Under the pieces are notes generated by a model. It made no database searches. It was not told the origin of the DNA and saw only the letters and a list, made by a program, of their open reading frames with translations. Shown here piece by piece: positions 26,245 to 36,920 of a DNA stretch of 64,000 bases. Each line of letters opens with the position of its first letter. Position 1 is the stretch's first letter. Origin of the DNA: Vulcanimicrobiota bacterium (GTDB lineage Bacteria; Vulcanimicrobiota; Xenobia; Xenobiales; JADMJV01); contig JBFWNU010000010.1 in assembly GCA_050250895.1 (NCBI GenBank), forward strand, positions 64,001-128,000, in the 5' to 3' direction. Both the position numbers and the translations under genes were made by a program.

Positions 26245-26269
26245 GAAAAAAACGCATTCGGAGAATGAA

Positions 26270-26713
26270 ATGATCCACGCCACCAATGTTTCTTCGCTGT
26301 CCTACACTCGCGCCCTGAGCGCCTATCGTGCCGCCAGCCCCGAGGCTGACTCGACTCCCCAGCTTCCCCTCGACGGGGTGACCATCTCCGCTCAGGCCCA
26401 GGCCCGCCCCCATCGCAGCGGTCTGGCCGGCGTTTCGAAATTTGTAGCCCTGGCACTGTGCGCCGGCGCCATGCTGGGGGCCGCCGGGTGCGCCAGCACC
26501 GGCCCCATGGCCGGGCAGCACCAGCCCGCCAACCCCTATCGTCAAGCCGGGCGCGACCTTCACGAGGTCGGCCAGCAGGGCAAAGAGGTCGGCCAGGCCA
26601 TCGGGCGCAAAGGCGCCGAGGTCGGCCGCGAAGTGGGCGAGCAAGGCAAGAAGTTTGGCCTGGGCGTGCGCGATGCCGCCGTCGAGTTCTGGAAGGGCCT
26701 CAAGGGCGAGTAG
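26270..26713 (+). CDS. Hypothetical protein: disordered leader + internal lipoprotein signal (AAGC, Cys74) + amphipathic G/K/E helical repeats
   Basis: PLDGVTIS; RSGLAGVSKFVALALCAGAMLGAAGC; EVGQQGKEVGQAIGRKGAEVGREVG. Confidence 0.75.
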   Translation: MIHATNVSSLSYTRALSAYRAASPEADSTPQLPLDGVTISAQAQARPHRSGLAGVSKFVALALCAGAMLGAAGCASTGPMAGQHQPANPYRQAGRDLHEVGQQGKEVGQAIGRKGAEVGREVGEQGKKFGLGVRDAAVEFWKGLKGE

Positions 26714-27287
26714 TCACTCGCCGGCCATCATAGCTCAAGTTTTCCGTGGCCCCGGGAGGCGAGGTGGCGATCTGCTCGTCGGCCGGATAGAGCGCCACTC
26801 GCGTTACCGAGCGGTCGGTCCCCGGTCCACTCGTGCCCACCGCGAAAGAGACCGGGCCCTCGGCCGTTTCAAGGCGCACAATCGAGCCGGTATTACCTTG
26901 TGGCCGTGGCATGCCATCCATGAGCATTTGCCCATTCTTGACCTCCAGCCGGTGGGGGCGTCCGTCTGTTCCGCAATAGTTGATGCGGGCCGTGCCGTCG
27001 GGCGCCCACTCCACCTGGCCTCCTGGAAACTCACTAATTTGTCCGCGCTGCAACTCGCGGGGATAGTTCTTTGGCTGGCCGCCGTCGAGCCCGAAGTTGG
27101 CCGCCAGGGCCGCTCCTCGCTCGACGGCTACGAAGGCGACAAAGCGGTCTTCGAGGTCCAGGGCAGTGTGCACCCTCCGGCGTCCCTGGCAGCCTGACCC
27201 AACCGGAGACCGGGCCGACTGCGAGCAGGCTTGGCGTGACGGGGGATGGCCGAGGGGAATGGCGCAGAAGCGAAAGTTGATGAGCAT
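26700..27287 (-). CDS. Hypothetical protein
   Basis: Strong RBS AAGGAGG before ATG 27287; MLINFRF... low-complexity leader, then beta-rich domain. Confidence 0.6.
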   Translation of the reverse strand: MLINFRFCAIPLGHPPSRQACSQSARSPVGSGCQGRRRVHTALDLEDRFVAFVAVERGAALAANFGLDGGQPKNYPRELQRGQISEFPGGQVEWAPDGTARINYCGTDGRPHRLEVKNGQMLMDGMPRPQGNTGSIVRLETAEGPVSFAVGTSGPGTDRSVTRVALYPADEQIATSPPGATENLSYDGRRVTTRP

Positions 27288-27472
27288 GGGGTGGTCCTCC
27301 TTCTGGTTGCGGGCGCCTTTTGGCGTCGCCGATGGGTCAAGCATAGGGCAGACGTTCGGACGGGCCTTTTGCCGTCTGGTTAAATGGATGTGTCGAAAGT
27401 GTTGAAAAATTATGAACATGCACTCGAGAGGCCCTCGGGCTCGGCCGGTAGAACCTCGCACATCGATGGGAA

Positions 27473-30400
27473 TTGGCTTTGGATAGGCTTGCGCCCGAGG
27501 AACTGCGCGAAAAAGTTGCGCAGGCGGTGCTGGTCAAGATATTGCGGGGACTTCGTCCGCAATGTGCTGCCGTGCTTTTCCCTGAGGCGGAGGGTCTTCG
27601 CGTTTGGGCCGCGCGGGGGGTTAAGTCGCCTTCAGCCCTGGCTCAGGATCTGACCGTTCTGGAAGTGCTGAAGACCAAGCACTCCATTACCCGCGAGCGG
27701 GGCTACTGCTCCATCATGTGCGTGCCCCTGCTCGACTGGGGCCAGGGGGTCGAGGCGCTCTTCTATGCCCAATCCGCCTCGGGGCGCTTCTTTCAGCAGC
27801 GCGAGATGGATTGGCTCGATGCCCTGGCTTCCAAAGCGCGCGAGAAGCTTTGGGGTCCCGAGCCGCCCGAACCGGCCGAGGGTGATACCCCGGGTCGTTC
27901 GCTGACCGACGCCGCCCAGGAGGTTCTCGACACGGTCGTCGAGGTGCTCTCGCCTGAGCGGGCCGCAATCTTCTTTCAGGAGCCGCCCAACGAGGAACTG
28001 GCCGTGCTGGCCAGCCACCAACTACCCCGGGAGAATTTTCTGACCGAGGCTCCGGTAAGTTTCGCTTTGCTCGAGTCTCTGTGGGAGAAGGGTGAGCCCG
28101 TCAATATCGTCGACGCTCAGCAACACGAGTTGGCGGATCTCGAGGGAATCAAGGAGCATGGTATCCGCTCGGTGGCAGCCTGCCCGCTGTTTGATCAGGA
28201 AAACAAGGTTCGCGGTCTGCTCTATCTAGACAGTTGCCAGGAGGCGGGGCTCTTTCGTAGCCGAGAACTCAACCTGTTGCGCCAGCTAGGAGAGAAGCTG
28301 GCTAACGAGTGGCCAGCGGCCCTGGCGGTGCATAAGCCCAGTGAAGAAGACTGGAGCGCCGTGCTCGACTCGCTCTCGAAGACCAAGTCCAACCGCCAGA
28401 TTTCGGGCTGGGAGGTGCTGTTGGAGTCGTTGGCTCGCAACGACGGCGAAGCGCACGACGTCTCACGCCCCACCGAAGAACTGGCTCGGCCCATCGAGCT
28501 CGAGGCGTTCATTCCCCGCTTTTCAGAGCCCGACGACGACAATCTCATCTTCGAGTTCGACGAGGCCGAAAGCGACGAAGAACTGGTGGACCTGCCCGAA
28601 GTGGTGCCCGTGCCGCGAGTGGAGAAGATCAAGGCTCGTCCCGAACCAGAGTGGATCGAAGAAACCCCCGCGGCTCCGGGCGCCGACCCGCCACCGGCCC
28701 TGGAACTCGTCACCATCAACAAGCTCTTCCGGGGCAAGGCGCTCTTCCAGCGGTCGCTGCGAGGACGCAAGGGCCCAGGCCCGAGATCCGAAGCCGGCGA
28801 CGAGGAAGTAGCCGCCTCTGAGGAGCTGCCGACCTCGGAGCCCGACGCCTACGCCCCTGCCAGTGAACCCGAGCAGCCGGCCGAGACGCCTCTGGGGGCC
28901 CCGACGGTCGTCTTCGGAAGCGAGACCATGAGGCTCGGCATGGCCCCTGCCGAGGGCTGGCAGCCGGCTCAGACCTCGTGGGAGGCGCCGAGCCCTGCAG
29001 AGCAGGCTGAGGAGTGGGGGCCGTGGGTCAATATGGCCATGGCCGCCGAGCCCACCTTCACCTCGACCGAGGAACAGCCCGACGAGGAGTCCTTCGATGA
29101 GGCTCTGTTGGACGACTATCCGGAGGAGTTTGATCTGCAGGCCCCCGCCGGGGAGCCCGACAGGCCCGAGGCAGAATCACCGAGCGAGTCGGCTTCCGCC
29201 GCCTGGGTTGACGAACCCCAGCCAGCCTGGCCCGTCGCCGAGCCGGTCTGGCCCGCCTCGGACTGGCCGGCAGAGGGGGAAGCGGCGGCGGCCGGGCCCG
29301 GGCTCGAGCCGCGGATCGAGCTGGAGCCTCCACCCGAGTTCGTCGAGAGAGCGGCCCCCGACCTCAAGGCCGAGCCTGAGGAGTGGGCGGCCGAGCCCGA
29401 GGTTGAAGAGGCCGAACCTGAGGAGTGGGCGGCCGAGCCCGAGGTCGAGCAGGTCGAGGCCGCGCCTGAGGAGTGGGCGGCCGAGCCCGAGGTCGGGCAG
29501 GTCGAGGCCGAGCCTGAGGAGTGGTCGGCCGAACCCGAGGTCGAAGAGGTGGAGCCTGAGGAATGGTCGGCCGAGCCCGACGTTGATGAGATCGATTCTG
29601 AGGCCGAGGAGGGGGCGGCCCAGCCTGAGGCGGAGCGAGTCGAGGCTGAACCGGAAGAGTTGACGGCTGAGCCCGAGGACGACGAGGCCGAGCCCGAGGT
29701 TGAGCAGGTGGAGGCTGAGCCGCAAGAGTGGGCGGCCGAGGCCGAGGCTGAACCGGAAGAGCTGACGACTGAGCCCGAGGCCGAGGCTGAACCGGAAGAG
29801 CTGGCGACTGAGCCCGAGTCCGAGGCTGAACCGGAAGAGCTGACCACTGAGCCCAAGTCCGAGGCTGAACCGGAAGAGCTGACCACTGAGCCGGAGTCCG
29901 AGGCTGAACCGGAAGAGCTGACCACTGAGCCGGAGGCCGAAGCTGAACCGGAAGAGCTGACCACTGAGCCGGAGGCCGAGTCTGAACCGGAAGAGCTGAC
30001 CATCGAACCCCAGGCCGAGCCTGAGGCCGAGGAGTTCGCGCCCGTGTTCCAAGAGGAGTTCGGTTTCGTCCCGGACTCCGACGAGATGGCCGTCGAAGCT
30101 GACCCCGAGCCCCCAGCCGAGCCGAACGACGAGTCCTTCGAGGCCGAACCCGAGCCGTTTTCCGGGCCCGTGCGAACCTCGGGTCAGAACGATGACGGCT
30201 GGGAGTCGCAAGAGCCGGCCGTCGAGATGCTGGTCGAAGAGACGCGGGCCATGGCCTTCGACTCGATGGAGTTGGCCGTCGAGCCCACGATGGAAGAGGG
30301 CATCCGCCTGGTCGTTCCTGTTCCGGTCGCTCCACCCCCGACTCCCTCGCTGTTCGAGCGCATCTTGCGTTGGATCGGCCTCAAGTCGACCCCTGAGGGC

Positions 30401-30709
30401 CCGGTGCCGGTACCCGTGCGCATCAACGGCCGAGTATTGGTCGAGAGACCGCTAGCCGGCCGCGTGGGGCCCACGGAGATCGTCTTGCACTTTCCTCAGG
30501 CCCGACTTCGCATGGTGCTCGAACTCGAGCATGGCCAGACCGAGTATGATTTCTCGGCCAATTTCAGTCCTGACCGAGTGCCTGCCACGGCCTCACTGAC
30601 TCTTCGCAAGGCAGGCTATCACCCCGTCAAATTGACGGGCATTCGCCTGGTCGACGGCCAGGCCCAGGTACCCGAAGTGACGCTCCTTCCCGAGGAGCAG
30701 GAGCGGTAG
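27473..30709 (+). CDS. Two GAF-like domains + very long acidic Glu/Pro repeat linker + small C-terminal beta domain
   Basis: SIMCVPLL...LFYAQS; GIRSVAACPLFD...GLLYLDS...FRSRELNLL; several hundred E/P/A-rich residues. Confidence 0.8.
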   Translation: MALDRLAPEELREKVAQAVLVKILRGLRPQCAAVLFPEAEGLRVWAARGVKSPSALAQDLTVLEVLKTKHSITRERGYCSIMCVPLLDWGQGVEALFYAQSASGRFFQQREMDWLDALASKAREKLWGPEPPEPAEGDTPGRSLTDAAQEVLDTVVEVLSPERAAIFFQEPPNEELAVLASHQLPRENFLTEAPVSFALLESLWEKGEPVNIVDAQQHELADLEGIKEHGIRSVAACPLFDQENKVRGLLYLDSCQEAGLFRSRELNLLRQLGEKLANEWPAALAVHKPSEEDWSAVLDSLSKTKSNRQISGWEVLLESLARNDGEAHDVSRPTEELARPIELEAFIPRFSEPDDDNLIFEFDEAESDEELVDLPEVVPVPRVEKIKARPEPEWIEETPAAPGADPPPALELVTINKLFRGKALFQRSLRGRKGPGPRSEAGDEEVAASEELPTSEPDAYAPASEPEQPAETPLGAPTVVFGSETMRLGMAPAEGWQPAQTSWEAPSPAEQAEEWGPWVNMAMAAEPTFTSTEEQPDEESFDEALLDDYPEEFDLQAPAGEPDRPEAESPSESASAAWVDEPQPAWPVAEPVWPASDWPAEGEAAAAGPGLEPRIELEPPPEFVERAAPDLKAEPEEWAAEPEVEEAEPEEWAAEPEVEQVEAAPEEWAAEPEVGQVEAEPEEWSAEPEVEEVEPEEWSAEPDVDEIDSEAEEGAAQPEAERVEAEPEELTAEPEDDEAEPEVEQVEAEPQEWAAEAEAEPEELTTEPEAEAEPEELATEPESEAEPEELTTEPKSEAEPEELTTEPESEAEPEELTTEPEAEAEPEELTTEPEAESEPEELTIEPQAEPEAEEFAPVFQEEFGFVPDSDEMAVEADPEPPAEPNDESFEAEPEPFSGPVRTSGQNDDGWESQEPAVEMLVEETRAMAFDSMELAVEPTMEEGIRLVVPVPVAPPPTPSLFERILRWIGLKSTPEGPVPVPVRINGRVLVERPLAGRVGPTEIVLHFPQARLRMVLELEHGQTEYDFSANFSPDRVPATASLTLRKAGYHPVKLTGIRLVDGQAQVPEVTLLPEEQER
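29370..30010 (+). repeat. Intragenic tandem repeats: EPEEW(A/S)AEPEV units, then 7 x 39-bp units encoding AEPEELTTEPEAE
   Basis: Repeated GCTGAACCGGAAGAGCTGACCACTGAGCC at about 29745-30005. Confidence 0.9.
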
Positions 30710-30829
30710 ACTCCCCACCATGGAAAGGGCCTTGCGTTCGTGAAGTCCGCTCGTGCTCACCGGCCTGGCGACTTGCAACTGGAAGACCCTTCAGGAGGAA
30801 CCGGGATAGGGCTTGCCAAACGGCTGGGC

Positions 30830-32695
30830 ATGCATCGAAAAATCCTGCTTTTGCTAGCTTTGATTACTGTGACTGGACCGGCTCTGGCCCAGGGCATTCG
30901 CGTCGAACTCGATGGGCGGATGCTCAGCTTCGACCAGCCTCCGGCCATGATTGACGGGCGTTTGATGGTGCCCCTGCGTGGCATCTTCGAGGCTCTTGCG
31001 GCCGAGGTGCTCTATGACGGACCGACGCGAACCATCAAAGCCACCAAGGGCAGTACCGTGGTCGAACTCACCCTCGGCAGCCAGGCCGCTAAGGTCAACG
31101 GCAACAACGTCTATCTCGACGTGCCGGCCGGCACCCTGGGCGGTCGCACGATGGTTCCTTTGCGCTTCGTCTCCGAAGCTCTTGGCGCCGAGGTCAAATG
31201 GGACGGACTGACCAAGACCGTGCGCATCGCCGGCAGCGGCGGGGTGGTGGATAGCCCGGCTCCGCCTCCCACCAGCGGCGGGGAGCGTCCTGCGATTCAG
31301 TCGGTCATCCACACCGCCACCTCGACTCTGGCGCCCGGCCAGAGCTTTGACGTGGTCATTCTGGGCGACCCGGGTTGCCGGGCTCGCTTCGAGATCGTGG
31401 GCGCCATCCGCAGCGTGACCGTGCCCGAAGTGCGCAGTGGTCGCTACGAGACCCGCTACACGATCCCCAACGGCTTGCAAGTCGAGGGCGGGGTGCTGAT
31501 CGGCTATCTCACCAAGAATGGCCTCGAGACCGCCTCTGAAGCCAACCGCACCGTGACCATCCGGGGAGCGGCCGCGCCCCAACCGGCGGCCGACTGGGAG
31601 GTCTCCCCCGCTCCCAACTCCACCGTCAGCGAGACCCGCCCCACGATTACCGTAAACCCCCCGGGACGGGGCCGGCCGGACAACGTTCGCCTCTATGTCG
31701 ACGGTATCGATTTCTCTAACCAGGTGGACCGCCGTCGCCGCATCACCTGGACCCCGACCTACGATCTCAATCCCGGGACCCATCAGGTCGAAGTGGTGGT
31801 GGGCGACAACAATAGTCCTGAGCCTCAGACCTACACCTGGAGCTTCACTATCGGGGCCCCCACCACCGGCACGACCAATTTCTTCCCCACCAACGGTTCC
31901 ACCGTCACCGAGTCGCGGCCCCAGATCGGAGCCTCCTTCTCCACCGCCGTCAACAACCCGCGCCTGATCATCGACGGCGGTGATTTCACCGGCTCCTCGG
32001 TCGTCAGCGGCAACCAGATCTTCTGGAACCCCCCTTACGACCTGAGTCCGGGCCTTCACCGCGTGCAGGTCACGGGCTATGACCTCAACGGCCGTGCTCT
32101 CAACTACAACTGGACCTTCACCCTGAGCGCCCAGAACAATTCCATCACCGACGTGAGCTTTGCTCCCACGACCTTGCAGTCGGGGCAGACCACCACCATC
32201 ACCGTGCGTGGCCCGGGCGGAGCCTACGGGACTTACTCCCTTTCGAACGGTCGCAGTGGGGTCTTGCGCGAGATCCAAACGGGCGTCTACCAGGGCACCT
32301 ACACGGCCACCGGCGTCGACCAGGGCAGCGTCAGCCTGACCGCCCAGTTGCGCCTGACCAACGGCCAGACCATCAGCGCCAATGCACCCAGCAATTTGAG
32401 CTTCAACACCAGTTCGCTGACCGTCGACAACCTGCGCGACGGCATGACCGTGCCGGTGAGCTTCAACGTTCAGGGCAGCGGCGTTCCCGGTTCGCAGGTG
32501 GTGGTTCGGGTCACTTATCCCAAAGGCGATGTTTTCGGCACCAACTTGACCTTCCAGGCGGTCGGCCTGGTCGGAGCCAACCGTCGCTACGACATTAGCG
32601 TCGACGCCTCGCAGGTGCCCAGCGGCCGCCAGATGACGGTGCAGGTTAGCGATAGCGCCGGGAGCGCTCCCATCGTGATCACCCTTCGGCGTTGA
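30830..32695 (+). CDS. Secreted protein with copper amine oxidase N-terminal (stalk) domain and tandem Ig-like domains
   Basis: MHRKILLLLALITVTGPALA signal; GRLMVPLRGIFEAL, GRTMVPLRFVSEALGAEVKWD; duplicated ETRP..LxVDGxDF..YDLxPGxH modules. Confidence 0.88.
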   Translation: MHRKILLLLALITVTGPALAQGIRVELDGRMLSFDQPPAMIDGRLMVPLRGIFEALAAEVLYDGPTRTIKATKGSTVVELTLGSQAAKVNGNNVYLDVPAGTLGGRTMVPLRFVSEALGAEVKWDGLTKTVRIAGSGGVVDSPAPPPTSGGERPAIQSVIHTATSTLAPGQSFDVVILGDPGCRARFEIVGAIRSVTVPEVRSGRYETRYTIPNGLQVEGGVLIGYLTKNGLETASEANRTVTIRGAAAPQPAADWEVSPAPNSTVSETRPTITVNPPGRGRPDNVRLYVDGIDFSNQVDRRRRITWTPTYDLNPGTHQVEVVVGDNNSPEPQTYTWSFTIGAPTTGTTNFFPTNGSTVTESRPQIGASFSTAVNNPRLIIDGGDFTGSSVVSGNQIFWNPPYDLSPGLHRVQVTGYDLNGRALNYNWTFTLSAQNNSITDVSFAPTTLQSGQTTTITVRGPGGAYGTYSLSNGRSGVLREIQTGVYQGTYTATGVDQGSVSLTAQLRLTNGQTISANAPSNLSFNTSSLTVDNLRDGMTVPVSFNVQGSGVPGSQVVVRVTYPKGDVFGTNLTFQAVGLVGANRRYDISVDASQVPSGRQMTVQVSDSAGSAPIVITLRR

Positions 32696-34541
32696 GGTCC
32701 AGGCCGCGAACCTTACCAAACATCGACAAGCCCTCGATCAGCATCCAAATCTGAAGACAGAGCACTCCGCCGCCGAAGCCTAGCAACAGATAGTTCTGCT
32801 GGGTCAGCCATCCGGTGGTGGAGTTGAACATCTGCCACAGCATGGCCCAGGCCGGCAGCAGGATCATCAGGGCCATCGGCCCCAGCAAGAACCAGACCGG
32901 CCGGTTACGGCGCAACAGATAGAACGACACCACCATAAAGGCTAAGCCGGCCAGCAGCTGGTTGATGGCCCCGAACAAGGGCCACAGGATCAGGCCGCCG
33001 CTGCCCGGACCTCGGGTGCCGGGATAGAAAGCTACCAGCAGGCCCAATCCGACGGCCAGAGCGGTGGCTGCATACTTGTTGGTGAAGAGCCCAAAGTGGA
33101 GCGATTCGGCCAACTCTTGCACCACATAGCGCTGCAAGCGGGTGGCCGTGTCGAGAGTGGTGGCCGCAAAGCTTGCCACCAGCACGGCGATGATGGCGAT
33201 ACACAGTTTGATGGGCAGGCCCAGGGTCGAGAGAAAGTTGGCTCCGCCCTCGATGAAACCGGCCAGCTGATCGGCCAGGGCCAGGCTCGCCCAACCCCCT
33301 TTTTGTTCGACTTCGCCGTTCTCTTTGATGACGGCTCGCACCGGGGTGTAGTGATGCAGCCAGGCGTCTCGCCCCTTGAGCGCCTGGCCGGTCTCGGCGG
33401 CGATGGCGGGCAGATAATCGTATTGAGCCCCTTTGCCGTCGCGATCCCACTCGCCCATCCCCAGACCGCTGCAGCAACAGAGGATGACCAGCACGGCCAG
33501 AGCGCCTTCCAGCAGCATGGCACCGTAGCCGATGCTCTGGGCATCGGTCTCGCACTCGACCTGTTTGCTGGTGGTGCCGGAGCTGACCAGGCAATGAAAG
33601 CCGCTGATAGCGCCGCAGGCGATGGTGATAAACAGAAAGGGCAAGATGGGAGGGGCGTCGGGTGGGATTTCGGTGGCCACGGCCGGGGCGGTGGCGAACA
33701 GGCTGACCTGACCGGTGAGGCTGGCCACGGCCAAGCCCGTCACCAGCATTCCCAGGGCTACCAGCAATTGATGGCTGTTGATGTAGTCGCGCGGCTGTAA
33801 CAGCACCCACACCGGCAAGACCGAGGCGATGAAGCAGTAGACGAACAGTAGCACCGTCCAGAAGACCACCGTGTTCTTGAGGGTGGGGTGGAACAGCGGC
33901 AGCGGAATCTCCACCGGCAGCCAGTAGCAACCCACCACGATGAACCCGTACATCAGGATCAAAGCCACGATGGAAGGGATGAGCAAACCGCCCTTGCGCT
34001 TGTAGGCCCACCAGCCGACCGCGATGGCGATGGGGATCTCCATCCAGACCGACAGCACCGTCTCGGGATAGACGCTGAAGATGATGGCGATGACCAGCCC
34101 GAACACGCCCAGCACGATGGTGAGGGCAAAGAACAAGATGAGCAAGAAGACCAGGCGGGCGCGCGGGTTGATCAGGCGTCCGGCCAGATCGCCCACCGTC
34201 TTGCCTTCGCTCCGCATTGAGACCACCAGGGCCCCGAAATCGTGGACCGCCCCGATGAAGATCGAGCCGAAGATCACCCACAGCAGGGCCGGCAGCCAAC
34301 CCCAGAAGACGGCCACCGCCGGGCCCACGATAGGACCGGTGCCGGCGATGCTGGTGAAGTGATGCCCAAAGACGATCTCGGCCTTGGTGGGCACATAGTC
34401 CACCCCGTCATTGACGGTATGAGCCGGAACCGGGTTCTCGGGGTGAAGGCCGAAGATCTTGTCGGCCAACCATTTGCCGTAGGTTCGGTAGGCGACAATG
34501 AATCCGACAAAACTAAGAAAGGCGACCAGCAGGGTATCCAC
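32679..34541 (-). CDS. cstA: Carbon starvation protein A (peptide/pyruvate transporter)
   Basis: DGVDYVPT, GHHFTSIAGTGPIVGP, LPVWVLLQPRDY, TIACGAISGFH, TTLDTATRL, WPLFGAINQLL. Confidence 0.95.
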   Translation of the reverse strand: MDTLLVAFLSFVGFIVAYRTYGKWLADKIFGLHPENPVPAHTVNDGVDYVPTKAEIVFGHHFTSIAGTGPIVGPAVAVFWGWLPALLWVIFGSIFIGAVHDFGALVVSMRSEGKTVGDLAGRLINPRARLVFLLILFFALTIVLGVFGLVIAIIFSVYPETVLSVWMEIPIAIAVGWWAYKRKGGLLIPSIVALILMYGFIVVGCYWLPVEIPLPLFHPTLKNTVVFWTVLLFVYCFIASVLPVWVLLQPRDYINSHQLLVALGMLVTGLAVASLTGQVSLFATAPAVATEIPPDAPPILPFLFITIACGAISGFHCLVSSGTTSKQVECETDAQSIGYGAMLLEGALAVLVILCCCSGLGMGEWDRDGKGAQYDYLPAIAAETGQALKGRDAWLHHYTPVRAVIKENGEVEQKGGWASLALADQLAGFIEGGANFLSTLGLPIKLCIAIIAVLVASFAATTLDTATRLQRYVVQELAESLHFGLFTNKYAATALAVGLGLLVAFYPGTRGPGSGGLILWPLFGAINQLLAGLAFMVVSFYLLRRNRPVWFLLGPMALMILLPAWAMLWQMFNSTTGWLTQQNYLLLGFGGGVLCLQIWMLIEGLSMFGKVRGLDLNAEG

Positions 34542-34580
34542 GCCACGGGTTTCGCGATGGGTCCGGGCAGGGCCTATCCG

Positions 34581-34612
34581 TTCAGTGTGTTTTGAGGTCG
34601 CCAGGTTAGATT
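34581..34612 (+). promoter_or_regulatory. Shared promoter TTCAG-N6-TTGAG-N10-TAGATT, 6 nt before ATG 34619
   Basis: Spacings counted directly. Confidence 0.65.
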
Positions 34613-34618
34613 GCGCCC

Positions 34619-35101
34619 ATGCAGATCCGTTGTCATCAGCCTATCGCGCATGCCGCCAACTTGCGCCACATCGCTCCTCCTACCACTGCGGGCGCCTCGA
34701 ACGTGCCCACGGAAGAGGTCGAACTGAGCGTGCCCTCCTCGGCCGCCGCCGAAGCCGGTCGCTCTTCGGGCCTGGCGGGCCTGGCCAAGACCGCCGCCAT
34801 GGTAGGCCTGGCCCTGACCGGAGTCAGCTTGCTGGCCGGTTGCGACGGAGCCCCGCCCAGTCAGGGCGCCGGCACCAGCCAGAGCCAGCCCACCAGTCAG
34901 CGCTACAACTGGACCACCGGCGAGTTCGAGCACGCCAAAGAAGGCGACAAGCTGCGCTACAACGTCTGGGAAGGCGAGTTCGAGTACGCTGGCAAGAACG
35001 ACAAAATGCGTTACAACTGGGCCGAGGGCAAGATGGAGCGGGCGCCCGCCGACGCCAAGCTGCAATACAACTGGCTCTCGGGCAAGTTCGAGTACCGCTA
35101 G
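34619..35101 (+). CDS. Hypothetical protein: disordered leader + internal lipoprotein signal (LAGC, Cys75) + four 19-aa YN(W/V)xxG(E/K)(F/M)E repeats
   Basis: PTEEVELS; RSSGLAGLAKTAAMVGLALTGVSLLAGC; RYNWTTGEFE, RYNVWEGEFE, RYNWAEGKME, QYNWLSGKFE. Confidence 0.8.
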   Translation: MQIRCHQPIAHAANLRHIAPPTTAGASNVPTEEVELSVPSSAAAEAGRSSGLAGLAKTAAMVGLALTGVSLLAGCDGAPPSQGAGTSQSQPTSQRYNWTTGEFEHAKEGDKLRYNVWEGEFEYAGKNDKMRYNWAEGKMERAPADAKLQYNWLSGKFEYR

Positions 35102-36020: not shown

Positions 36021-36920
36021 TCACACCCTGAAATCGCTGGCCACCTTCGGCCGGGCGGCGGCTGGGCTGGGCAGGCTTGGGCTGGGCTGGCCTGGGCTGG
36101 CCGGCGGGCGGCGGGGGATCACCCCGAGAAATCGCTGGCCACCTTCGGTCGAGCTGGCCGGGCGGCGGCTGGGCTGGGCTGGCTTGGGCTGGCTGGCGGG
36201 CGGCGGGGGATCACCCCGAGAAATCGCTGGCCACCTTCGGCCGAGCTGCCCGGGCGGCGGCTGGCTTGGGCTGGCTGGCGGGCGGCCGGGTTTCACCCGA
36301 GAGTCGCGGTGTGAAGGTCGGTTTTGGGGGTTCACCCCGAGAAATCGCGGGGTGAAGGCCGGTTTTGGGGGTTCACCCCGAGAATCGCGGTGTGAAGGTC
36401 GGTTTTGGGGGTTCACCCCGAGAAATCGCGGGGTGAAGGTCGATTTTGGGGGTTCACCCCGAGAAATCGCGGGGTGAAGGCCGGTTTTGGGGGTCACCCC
36501 GAGAATCGCGGTGTGAAGGTCGATTTTGGGGGTTCACCCCGAGAAATCGCGGGGTGAAGGCCGGTTTTGGGGGTCACCCCGAGAATCGCGGTGTGAAGGT
36601 CGGTTTTGGGGGTTCACCCCGTGAATCGCGGTGTGAAGGTCGGTTTTGGGGGTTCACCCCGAGAATCGCGGTGTGAAGGTCGATTTTGGGGGGTCACCCC
36701 GAGAATCGCGGTGTGAAGGTCGATTTTGGGGGTTCACCCCGAGAAATCGCTGGCGCCACCTTCGGCCGAGTTGGCCGGGCGGCGGCTGGCTTGGGCTGGC
36801 TGGCGGGCGGCGGGGGTTTCACCCCGAGAAATCGCTGGCGCCACCTCCGGCCGAGTTTGCCGGGGCGGCGGCTGGCTTGGGCTGGCTGGCGGGCGGCGGG
36901 GGATCACCCCGAGAAGATCG
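36021..36920. repeat. Composite intergenic tandem array: 17 copies of core TCACCCCGAGAA(A)TCGC arranged as 3 long units, 11 x 39-41 bp hairpin units, 2 long units and a terminal core
   Basis: Short unit GGGGGTTCACCCCGAGAAATCGCGGGGTGAAGGCCGGTTTT with TTCACCCCG/CGGGGTGAA stem; long unit continues TGGCCACCTTCGGCCGAG..(GGCTG)n..GGCGGCGGGGGA. Confidence 0.95.

Follow-up and report, generated by a model that had tools for sequence, protein, structure and literature searches.

Two described kinds of signal peptide stand closest to the element analyzed here. The ESPR signal peptides (PF13018) exceed 50 residues in length, and contain a conserved extension of 25 residues that is not a signal in its own right, but alters the targeting of the protein and slows its export (PMC8151025). 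The substrates of the accessory-Sec (SecA2/SecY2) system also have very long signal peptides, and in GspB of Streptococcus gordonii, in which the hydrophobic core lies around residues 70–85, a mutant of the core glycines (G75L/G79A/G80C) passes from the accessory to the general Sec pathway (PMC5578698). The present analysis deals with a stretch of 64,000 nucleotides from contig JBFWNU010000010.1 of a bacterium of the phylum Vulcanimicrobiota (the window, to which all positions refer unless a contig code is given), and with two of its open reading frames (ORFs), A (26270–26713, forward strand, 147 residues) and B (34619–35101, forward strand, 160 residues), which would encode lipoproteins preceded by an N-terminal leader. 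With moderate confidence, A and B are regarded here as members of a lineage-specific class of extended Sec signal peptides, in which a disordered cytoplasmic extension would carry docking motifs.

In the surface proteins of Gram-positive bacteria, the YSIRK-G/S signal peptides carry, on a subset of the proteins, an n-region motif that directs the site of export, with the Sec machinery itself remaining unchanged. The KxYKxGKxW motif marks a class of signal peptides that is grouped with those of the accessory-Sec substrates. The programs that call lipoproteins apply position-based rules to the lipobox cysteine, and would miss lipoproteins that have the leader described here.

The leader, of which 54 members were curated in the genome under study, shares with the ESPR class a length of more than 50 residues, a conserved extension followed by a Sec-like C-terminal part, and the occurrence on a subset of the exported proteins in certain lineages. 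The Sec-like part is present here, with a core that starts at residues 37–77 and ends in a lipobox or an AxA-type site in 38 of the 54 members. Unlike the ESPR class, however, neither A nor B matches PF13018 at E ≤ 10, and none of the 54 members does so at E ≤ 0.001. The extension is of 40–75 residues, rather than 25, is Pro-rich and disordered, and is found in a different phylum, where it precedes lipoproteins, substrates of signal peptidase I (SPase I), and membrane anchors, with no autotransporter or two-partner secretion domain among the Pfam matches of the 54 members.

The length of the signal peptide, its Gly-rich core, and the presence of extra SecA-like genes in this clade all recall accessory Sec, although such a core could also follow from common descent of the module. 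In contrast with accessory Sec, the genome combines two SecA_DEAD matches with a single SecY match, and the cargo does not consist of serine-rich glycoproteins (the Asp genes were not searched for). The KxYKxGKxW motif is not visible in the leader alignment, and the YSIRK-G/S peptides differ in motif, length, and organisms, with no corresponding Pfam match among the 54 members. The basic residue, hydrophobic core, and lipobox, in a genome with Lgt and Lsp genes, are those of ordinary lipoprotein signal peptides, but the cysteine, at residues 74 and 75 (54–95 in the family), lies outside the positional rule of roughly the first 15–35 residues, and 137 ordinary candidates from the same genome have Leu-rich, Gly-poor cores. 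Membership of the ESPR or accessory-Sec classes thus fails on sequence, cargo, and machinery, and the leader is therefore a variant of the extended kind of signal peptide, rather than a member of either class. It probably represents an undescribed kind, and no description of it was found in the literature, as judged by titles and abstracts.

The leader family and its translation starts

The end of the leader in A reads R49 S50 G51 L52 A53 G54 V55 S56 K57, followed by the lipobox A-A-G-C74, and that in B reads S49 S50 G51 L52 A53 G54 L55 A56 K57, followed by L-A-G-C75. The first-pass annotation of the window had reported two ORFs with GLAG at 51–54, Lys57, and lipobox cysteines at 74 and 75, and the sequences are exactly as it gave them; the mature parts, which it described as unrelated, have no match to each other in sequence searches. 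The lipobox rule [LVI][ASTVI][GAS]C, applied after a hydrophobic core with K/R in the n-region, describes B (with K57), while in A, which also has K57, the Ala at position -3 is less canonical. The N-termini of A and B have no match in Pfam or NCBIfam, and a look-up of residues 1–76 of B in the ESM Atlas returned no usable match.

As a query against its own genome, B alone matched the N-termini of other ORFs (C3:52199, E 4e-7; C5:281438, E 1e-3; C1:937351, E 4e-3), and A alone matched two of the same places weakly. A profile built from 14 paralogous leaders, including B and excluding A, recovered A at E 2.9e-4 among 106,610 six-frame ORFs, together with other sequences, giving at least 14 members outside the seed, A among them. 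A second round returned 36 ORFs at E < 1e-3 and 40 at E < 0.01, counts in which the sequences used to build the profile match by construction. The 54 curated members comprise the matches at E < 0.01 and weaker ones (E up to 0.5) with the same architecture. A crude scan of the genome for a lipobox with a distant start added two leader-like candidates (C1:1731498- and C1:2013793-), and was noisy because chance GTG and TTG codons are frequent, as was a regular-expression scan for GLAG. Judging from these profile matches, the leaders of A and B are homologous, and form part of one family.

The shared pattern runs from M-x-I through R-x-APP (basic-x-A-P-P) and P-x-D/E-x-V/F-x-L-S, often with S-G-W-K/R at the membrane edge, to a Gly/Ala-rich hydrophobic core. 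A hydrophobic core is found in 53 of the 54 members, where it begins at residues 37–77 (median 52). An xPP motif lies within the first 45 residues of 45 of these 53 members, the motif [DE]-x-[VFLIY]-x-[LIVFPT]-[SGDT] is found in 37, a Trp beside K/R/Q at the membrane edge in 28, and an M-x-I/V start in 25. The extension is rich in Pro, Ala, Ser, and Thr, and about 40–75 residues long, which brings the whole signal peptide to about 55–95 residues, and AlphaFold2 models it as coil throughout (alignment of 45 leaders; mean predicted local distance difference test score, pLDDT, 72.5). No twin arginine, the signature of Tat substrates, is conserved in the alignment, the residues in question being H-R-S-G in A and G-R-S-S in B. 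The core ends in a lipobox in 14 of the 54 members, in an AxA-type site in 24, and in neither in 16, with the lipobox cysteines at 54, 58, 60, 61, 62, 63, 73, 74, 74, 75, 75, 80, 81, and 95.

The resemblance of A and B that the first-pass annotation had pointed out thus extends to a whole family, to which both N-termini belong, but GLAG immediately ahead of the core is restricted to A and B (2 of 53 members). The "identical register" holds in the sense that Cys74 and Cys75 are shared by the two proteins, but this is the modal length of the family, in which five of the 14 lipobox members have the cysteine at 73–75.

In A, no start codon intervenes between the upstream stop and the ATG at 26270, which has GGAG 6 nt upstream. 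The next in-frame ATG, GTG, or TTG is Met68, which lies inside the hydrophobic core, so that no signal peptide of the ordinary short kind can arise. In B, the ATG is preceded by a stop three codons away, and TAGATT ends 6 nt before the ATG, the spacing expected for transcription starting at the A of the ATG, which would yield a leaderless mRNA. The choice of the family starts relied on the M-x-I pattern and the profile alignment, and was made before the start signals were noticed. A TAnnnT hexamer ends exactly 6 nt upstream in 14 of 53 members, and 5–8 nt upstream in 18, whereas the frequencies at 201,843 ATG trinucleotides of the genome are 0.5% and 1.6%, respectively (binomial P 1e-20 and 2e-19). 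A Shine-Dalgarno (SD) core lies 5–10 nt upstream in 27 of the 53 members, against a background of 9.1% (P 7e-15), and neither signal is present in nine.

These signals bear on the possibility that the leader is an artefact of annotation, in which translation truly begins at an internal codon and yields ordinary lipoproteins, and the lack of stops in the 50 codons before it is a matter of chance, the genome being GC-rich. Long chance ORFs are indeed frequent at 63% GC, and B has an in-frame Met61, which the first-pass annotation itself had named as a start that would undo its reading. A start at Met61, however, would leave no basic n-region, A has no alternative codon before Met68, and the start signals are found at codon 1 across the family, so no usable internal start exists. 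The upstream region is also conserved as protein, with codons that vary synonymously, across 40–54 paralogues and in other genera, and is retained by all four of the database homologues of A and B. This explanation is therefore largely excluded, and so improbable as to be of little weight.

The two nearly invariant prolines of the leader use all four Pro codons (CCC 31, CCG 29, CCT 20, and CCA 10), and the GC content at third codon positions is 0.71 in the leader, against a genome mean of about 0.63. The leader identity is 50/54 (P0013) and 41/56 (P0014) in the homologues of A, and 46/54 (P0003) and 49/54 (P0004) in those of B, with the cores of the motifs unchanged in all four, and GLAG variable (SAMAG, GLGG, GIAG). 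In five genomes of the sister genus g2, the orthologues of the mature part of A have a diverged extension of about 58 residues before the lipobox, and a GGAGG before a GTG or ATG start. The loss of the first 50 residues in homologues, the other finding that the first-pass annotation had considered fatal to its claim, is thus seen neither in the database homologues nor in the g2 orthologues. The pattern of codon use and conservation indicates that the leader is translated, and is selected as protein.

The combination of TAnnnT 6 nt before the ATG and a stop a few codons upstream was observed in B (34607–34621) and in 17 other genes of the family, which suggests a frequent use of leaderless mRNAs in this organism, a point of relevance for gene calling in the whole genome.

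Cargo, distribution, and export machinery

The Pfam matches of the 54 members are to envelope-type domains that are unrelated to one another, and include M48 peptidases (two), an alpha-amylase, a GH76 protein, an InhA-like MAM domain, Exo_endo_phos, SGL, alpha/beta hydrolases, an FtsH-like AAA+M41 protease, and one DJ-1/PfpI protein, while most members have no match. No Pfam or NCBIfam family is common to more than two of the 54 members (in NCBIfam, among the first 25 of 95 families listed), and no curated model therefore covers the leader. In the FtsH-like member, the leader is followed by a first transmembrane segment at residues 55–76, a second at about 148–171, and the AAA domain from residue 240, a topology that places the leader in the cytoplasm.

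Glycine makes up 20% of the hydrophobic core of the leader lipoproteins, against 5% in the 137 ordinary lipoprotein candidates (Mann-Whitney P 1e-8), which were picked by a regular expression with the cysteine at 15–31 and include some false positives; alanine makes up 29% against 11% (P 1e-5), and the mean hydrophobicity is similar. The M48 peptidase at C3:52175-53104 provides an example of exchange. The five closest orthologues examined, all from g2 (37–50% identity), carry the leader and the Gly/Ala-rich core, which ends in a lipobox in four of them, but not in genome G002, whereas all 14 distant copies examined (genera g1, g3, g5, g6, g7, g8, and g9) have short Leu-rich signal peptides. 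The leader and the core therefore act as one module, which is able to replace an ordinary signal peptide.

In 41 related genomes, searched with a profile based on the genome under study (150 candidates scored per genome), the leader was matched at E ≤ 0.01 in 19 genomes; the counts by family are 10/15 in f1, 5/5 in f2, 2/19 in f3, and 1/1 in f4. A broader profile, applied to 201 genomes of the phylum (33 candidates scored per genome), gave matches at E ≤ 0.001 in 11/15 of f1, 5/5 of f2, and 1/3 of f4, with single weak matches in f3 (2/19), f14 (1/6), and f15 (1/114), and no match in the remaining families of this sample. These counts are lower bounds, given that diverged leaders, such as those of g2, are poorly detected. 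The leader occurs in sister families, but is almost absent elsewhere in the phylum.

Among 1.84 billion representative proteins, a profile search returned 13 matches at E ≤ 1e-3, of which six were inspected; four carry the leader and two are false positives, and P0013 also carries the leader. The two false positives, P0001 and P0007, are unrelated giant PKD-like repeat proteins matched through a "PPTANAGADQTV..VTLEGS" repeat. The start of their PKD-like repeat, "NTPPTANAGADQTVDEGTEEVTLEGS", deceives the leader profile, and the motif is common.

The genome has one gene for Lsp (118.7 bits) and two for Lgt (221 and 138 bits). The second SecA-like ORF, C12:63308-66895(+), encodes 1196 residues, with an N-terminal extension of about 170 residues rich in Pro, Ala, Thr, and Glu, and is followed by two ExbD/TolR-like ORFs. 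Its N-terminus ("TPPVAKANG...LPVESFEAS") appears leader-like to the eye, but was rejected, as it scores below zero against the leader profile. Among the relatives, SecA_DEAD matches mostly number two to six in f1, f2, and f4, with one in the small-genome g5.

Both full-length FlhA genes, C1:585691-587613(-) and C1:1458965-1460971(-), lie in flagellar sets, one with FlhA, FlhB, FliQ, a rod protein, FliF, and FliG, and the other with FlhA, FlhB, FliR, FliQ, FliP, FliO, FliM, a hook-like protein, and FliK. In eight further ORFs, the match to FlhA/SctV is limited to the cytoplasmic C-terminal half (FHIPEP positions ~322–656), and the N-terminal parts are variable, including an HTH, a multi-pass membrane domain, and others. 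The eight ORFs are C6:529401-530381(-), C1:2013982-2014740(-), C1:2475431-2476438(+), C7:121919-122905(-), C1:1126976-1127566(-), C7:117253-118194(-), C1:2008860-2009774(+), and C8:31716-32150(+). The relatives have from one to about 17 such FlhA_C-only copies, and even genomes of 2.4 Mb keep one, an expansion that looks unusual. A leader-family protein of 511 residues, C8:34222-35757(-), has a weak match to the NolX family (29.6 bits against a cut-off of 26.1; residues 126–186), and is convergent to, and about 1 kb from, the FlhA_C-only ORF C8:31608-33209(+). The proximity of an FlhA_C-only gene to the g2 orthologue of A (about 4 kb) was rejected as a link, since DUF1800-like, DUF1501-like, and phasin-like genes lie between the two, and in the genome under study, A and the FlhA_C-only gene are on different contigs. 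No solid link between the FlhA_C-only ORFs and the leader was found in the loci, the profile scores, or the neighbourhood census of the leader genes.

Other features of the window

The features of A and B are listed in Table 1. The Pfam match of the mature part of B to CBM_5_12_2 is weak and below threshold (E 0.004).

Table 1. Coordinates of the features read or predicted in ORFs A and B of the window.
Feature	Position	Strand	Remarks
A, Shine-Dalgarno core GGAG	26260–26263	+	6 nt before the ATG; read from the sequence
A, leader, residues 1–54	26270–26431	+	Profile built without A, E 2.9e-4; kept in homologues
A, leader motif, variant R-A-A-S-P	26327–26341	+	Within the leader
A, leader motif P-L-D-G-V-T-I-S	26366–26389	+	Within the leader
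A, signal-peptide core: K57, Gly/Ala-rich hydrophobic core, lipobox A-A-G-C74	26432–26491	+	Sequence and composition
A, predicted mature lipoprotein from Cys74, with stop	26489–26713	+	Small, Lys/Gly-rich; no Pfam family
B, -10-like hexamer TAGATT	34607–34612	+	Ends 6 nt before the ATG; leaderless-mRNA signature
B, leader, residues 1–54, M-Q-I start	34619–34780	+	Kept in homologues; paralogous matches in the genome
B, leader motif R-H-I-A-P-P	34673–34681 (APP)	+	Within the leader
B, leader motif P-T-E-E-V-E-L-S	34706–34729	+	Within the leader
B, signal-peptide core: K57, Gly/Ala-rich hydrophobic core, canonical lipobox L-A-G-C75	34781–34843	+	Sequence and composition
B, predicted mature lipoprotein from Cys75, with stop	34841–35101	+	Four repeats of about 16 residues, R-Y-N-W-x-x-G-E-F-E-Y-like

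An ORF of 1078 residues at 27473–30709 (forward strand) has a central region of about 450 residues made up of highly acidic tandem repeats (AEPEELTTEPE(A/S)E), and an N-terminus that is GAF-like by eye. At 36021–36676, repeated DNA is found, the translations of which, on both strands, read "GFTPRNRGVKAGFGGSPRESRCEGRFW" several times in tandem. A similar stretch is present on another contig of the same genome (C8), and this DNA is possibly a dispersed repeat element.

Readings of the leader and their significance

In the extended Sec signal peptide proposed here, the disordered N-terminal extension with its conserved short motifs would be followed by an otherwise ordinary Sec-type signal, with a basic n-region and a short Gly/Ala-rich core that ends in a lipobox, an AxA site, or a signal anchor. 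The core would enter SecYEG in the N-in orientation, with the extension staying in the cytoplasm. In A and B, Lgt would lipidate Cys74 or Cys75, and Lsp would cut before the cysteine, removing the extension together with the signal peptide; in the AxA members, SPase I would remove the whole piece, and the anchor-type members would keep the extension as a tail. The conserved motifs may act as docking sites for a cytoplasmic or membrane-peripheral factor, which would give this subset of the envelope proteins special handling, whether through the choice of the route, holding or delay, or the place of export. Its action would resemble that of the ESPR extension, or of the long, Gly-dependent signal peptides of accessory-Sec substrates. 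Candidates for the partner are the extra, long SecA-like ATPases found in this clade.

A number of observations weigh against this proposal. For 14 of the 54 members, the assignment is based on weak profile scores (E 0.01–0.5) and on architecture assessed by eye, and in one member, the DJ-1/PfpI-like protein, no hydrophobic core can be clearly recognised. The D-x-V-x-L-S motif is not confined to the leader, given that P-x-D-x-V-x-L-S/G is also found outside the leader context, after the lipobox of a subtilisin-like ORF and at the N-termini of a few ORFs without a hydrophobic core (the listed loci are C1:2256896-2259256(+), C1:2095320-2095538(+), C14:23005-23625(+), and C3:570348-568867(-)), and may be a more general short motif of this lineage. 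The Gly/Ala-rich core may simply have been passed on as part of the module, and not reflect selection for routing. The link to the extra SecA is loose, as g8 and the genomes G004 and G014 have an extra SecA without a leader match, and both the extra SecA and the leader track genome size and phylogeny. A census of the neighbourhoods (±4 kb) of the 54 genes found no dedicated recurrent or chaperone-like neighbour, and only generic signalling proteins recur, beside eight of the genes.

The alternatives differ primarily in the fate that they assign to the extension. It may be a stable cytoplasmic tail, on what is mostly an uncleaved signal anchor, that serves permanently in signalling, in regulated proteolysis, as in anti-sigma factors, or in tethering these bitopic envelope proteins to a cytoplasmic scaffold. 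This would agree with the 16 of 54 members that lack a recognisable cleavage motif, with the cytoplasmic side of the leader, with the FtsH-like member, which needs its first helix as a membrane span, and with the docking role that conserved short motifs would suit. We nevertheless consider it unlikely, because 14 members have a canonical or near-canonical lipobox immediately after a core of 13–18 residues, far above chance for plain helices, a further 24 have AxA sites, Lgt and Lsp are both encoded, and the module takes the place of ordinary cleaved signal peptides on the M48 orthologues; the leader also has no anti-sigma or FlgM match in Pfam. The leader may also be a pro-peptide, in which a dedicated protease would cut RS/GLAG to expose a normal signal peptide. 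A cleavage site near RSGLAG was the alternative named in the first-pass annotation, and A and B do share RS(S)GLAG at residues 49–54. This reading can hardly be sustained, as GLAG is confined to these two members, is replaced by SAMAG, GLGG, or GIAG in close homologues, and stands where the family as a whole has S-G-W-K/R, a typical n-region of the membrane interface.

The first-pass annotation had preferred bipartite targeting, in which the leader would deliver the protein by one route, for example into another cell, where the internal signal would use the Sec, Lgt, and Lsp of the recipient. In such a model, the leader would be recognised by a different export apparatus, of which type III secretion is an example. 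The bipartite part of this idea has survived, in that the first 50 or so residues are real, translated, conserved, and distinct from the lipoprotein signal that follows, but the delivery to another cell is not supported. Membrane-targeted type III substrates do have a comparable layout, with a disordered N-terminus and a hydrophobic segment some 50 residues in, and the D-x-V-x-L-S motif recalls FlgM, although it is not a model match, and A, B, and the 54 members have no match to PF04316. The two FlhA genes, the eight FlhA_C-only paralogues, and the NolX-like leader protein near one of these may also be counted in its favor. The same leader, however, precedes SPase I-type signals, anchors, and the first transmembrane segment of the FtsH-like protein, where it lies in the cytoplasm of the producer, and the cargo consists of ordinary periplasmic or envelope enzymes, including this FtsH paralogue. 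The genome encodes its own Lgt and Lsp, and both full-length FlhA/SctV loci are flagellar, with FlhB, FliP/Q/R/O, FliF, FliG, FliM, FliK, and rod proteins, rather than injectisome loci (secretin and needle genes were not searched for). Type III signals are not conserved in sequence, whereas the leader is, and unrelated genes separate the FlhA_C gene from the g2 orthologue of A. Trans-cellular delivery is thus very unlikely.

The proposal of an extended Sec signal peptide can be taken further, to a signal-peptide class of the clade's own. In these large-genome bacteria, the tag of about 50 residues and the Gly/Ala-rich core would direct some fifty proteins per genome, among them lipoproteins, secreted enzymes, and anchors, into a branch of the Sec pathway reserved for them, served by the extra SecA-like ATPases or by expanded FlhA_C-like docking proteins. 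This bolder version is doubtful, though it deserves consideration; if true, it would represent a new sorting system, comparable in scale to Tat or accessory Sec. Extended signal peptides whose n-region is conserved are uncommon, and every known class (ESPR, accessory Sec, YSIRK, and Tat) has exposed a separate layer of export control. The leader described here is found on membrane anchors and secreted enzymes as well as on lipoproteins, in a phylum whose cell biology has hardly been studied by experiment. Programs that expect the cysteine or the cleavage site within about 35 residues miss around 50 proteins per genome, or truncate their starts, and the envelope proteome of the clade is therefore mis-annotated. 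The short conserved motifs, in turn, offer a direct handle for finding the partner.

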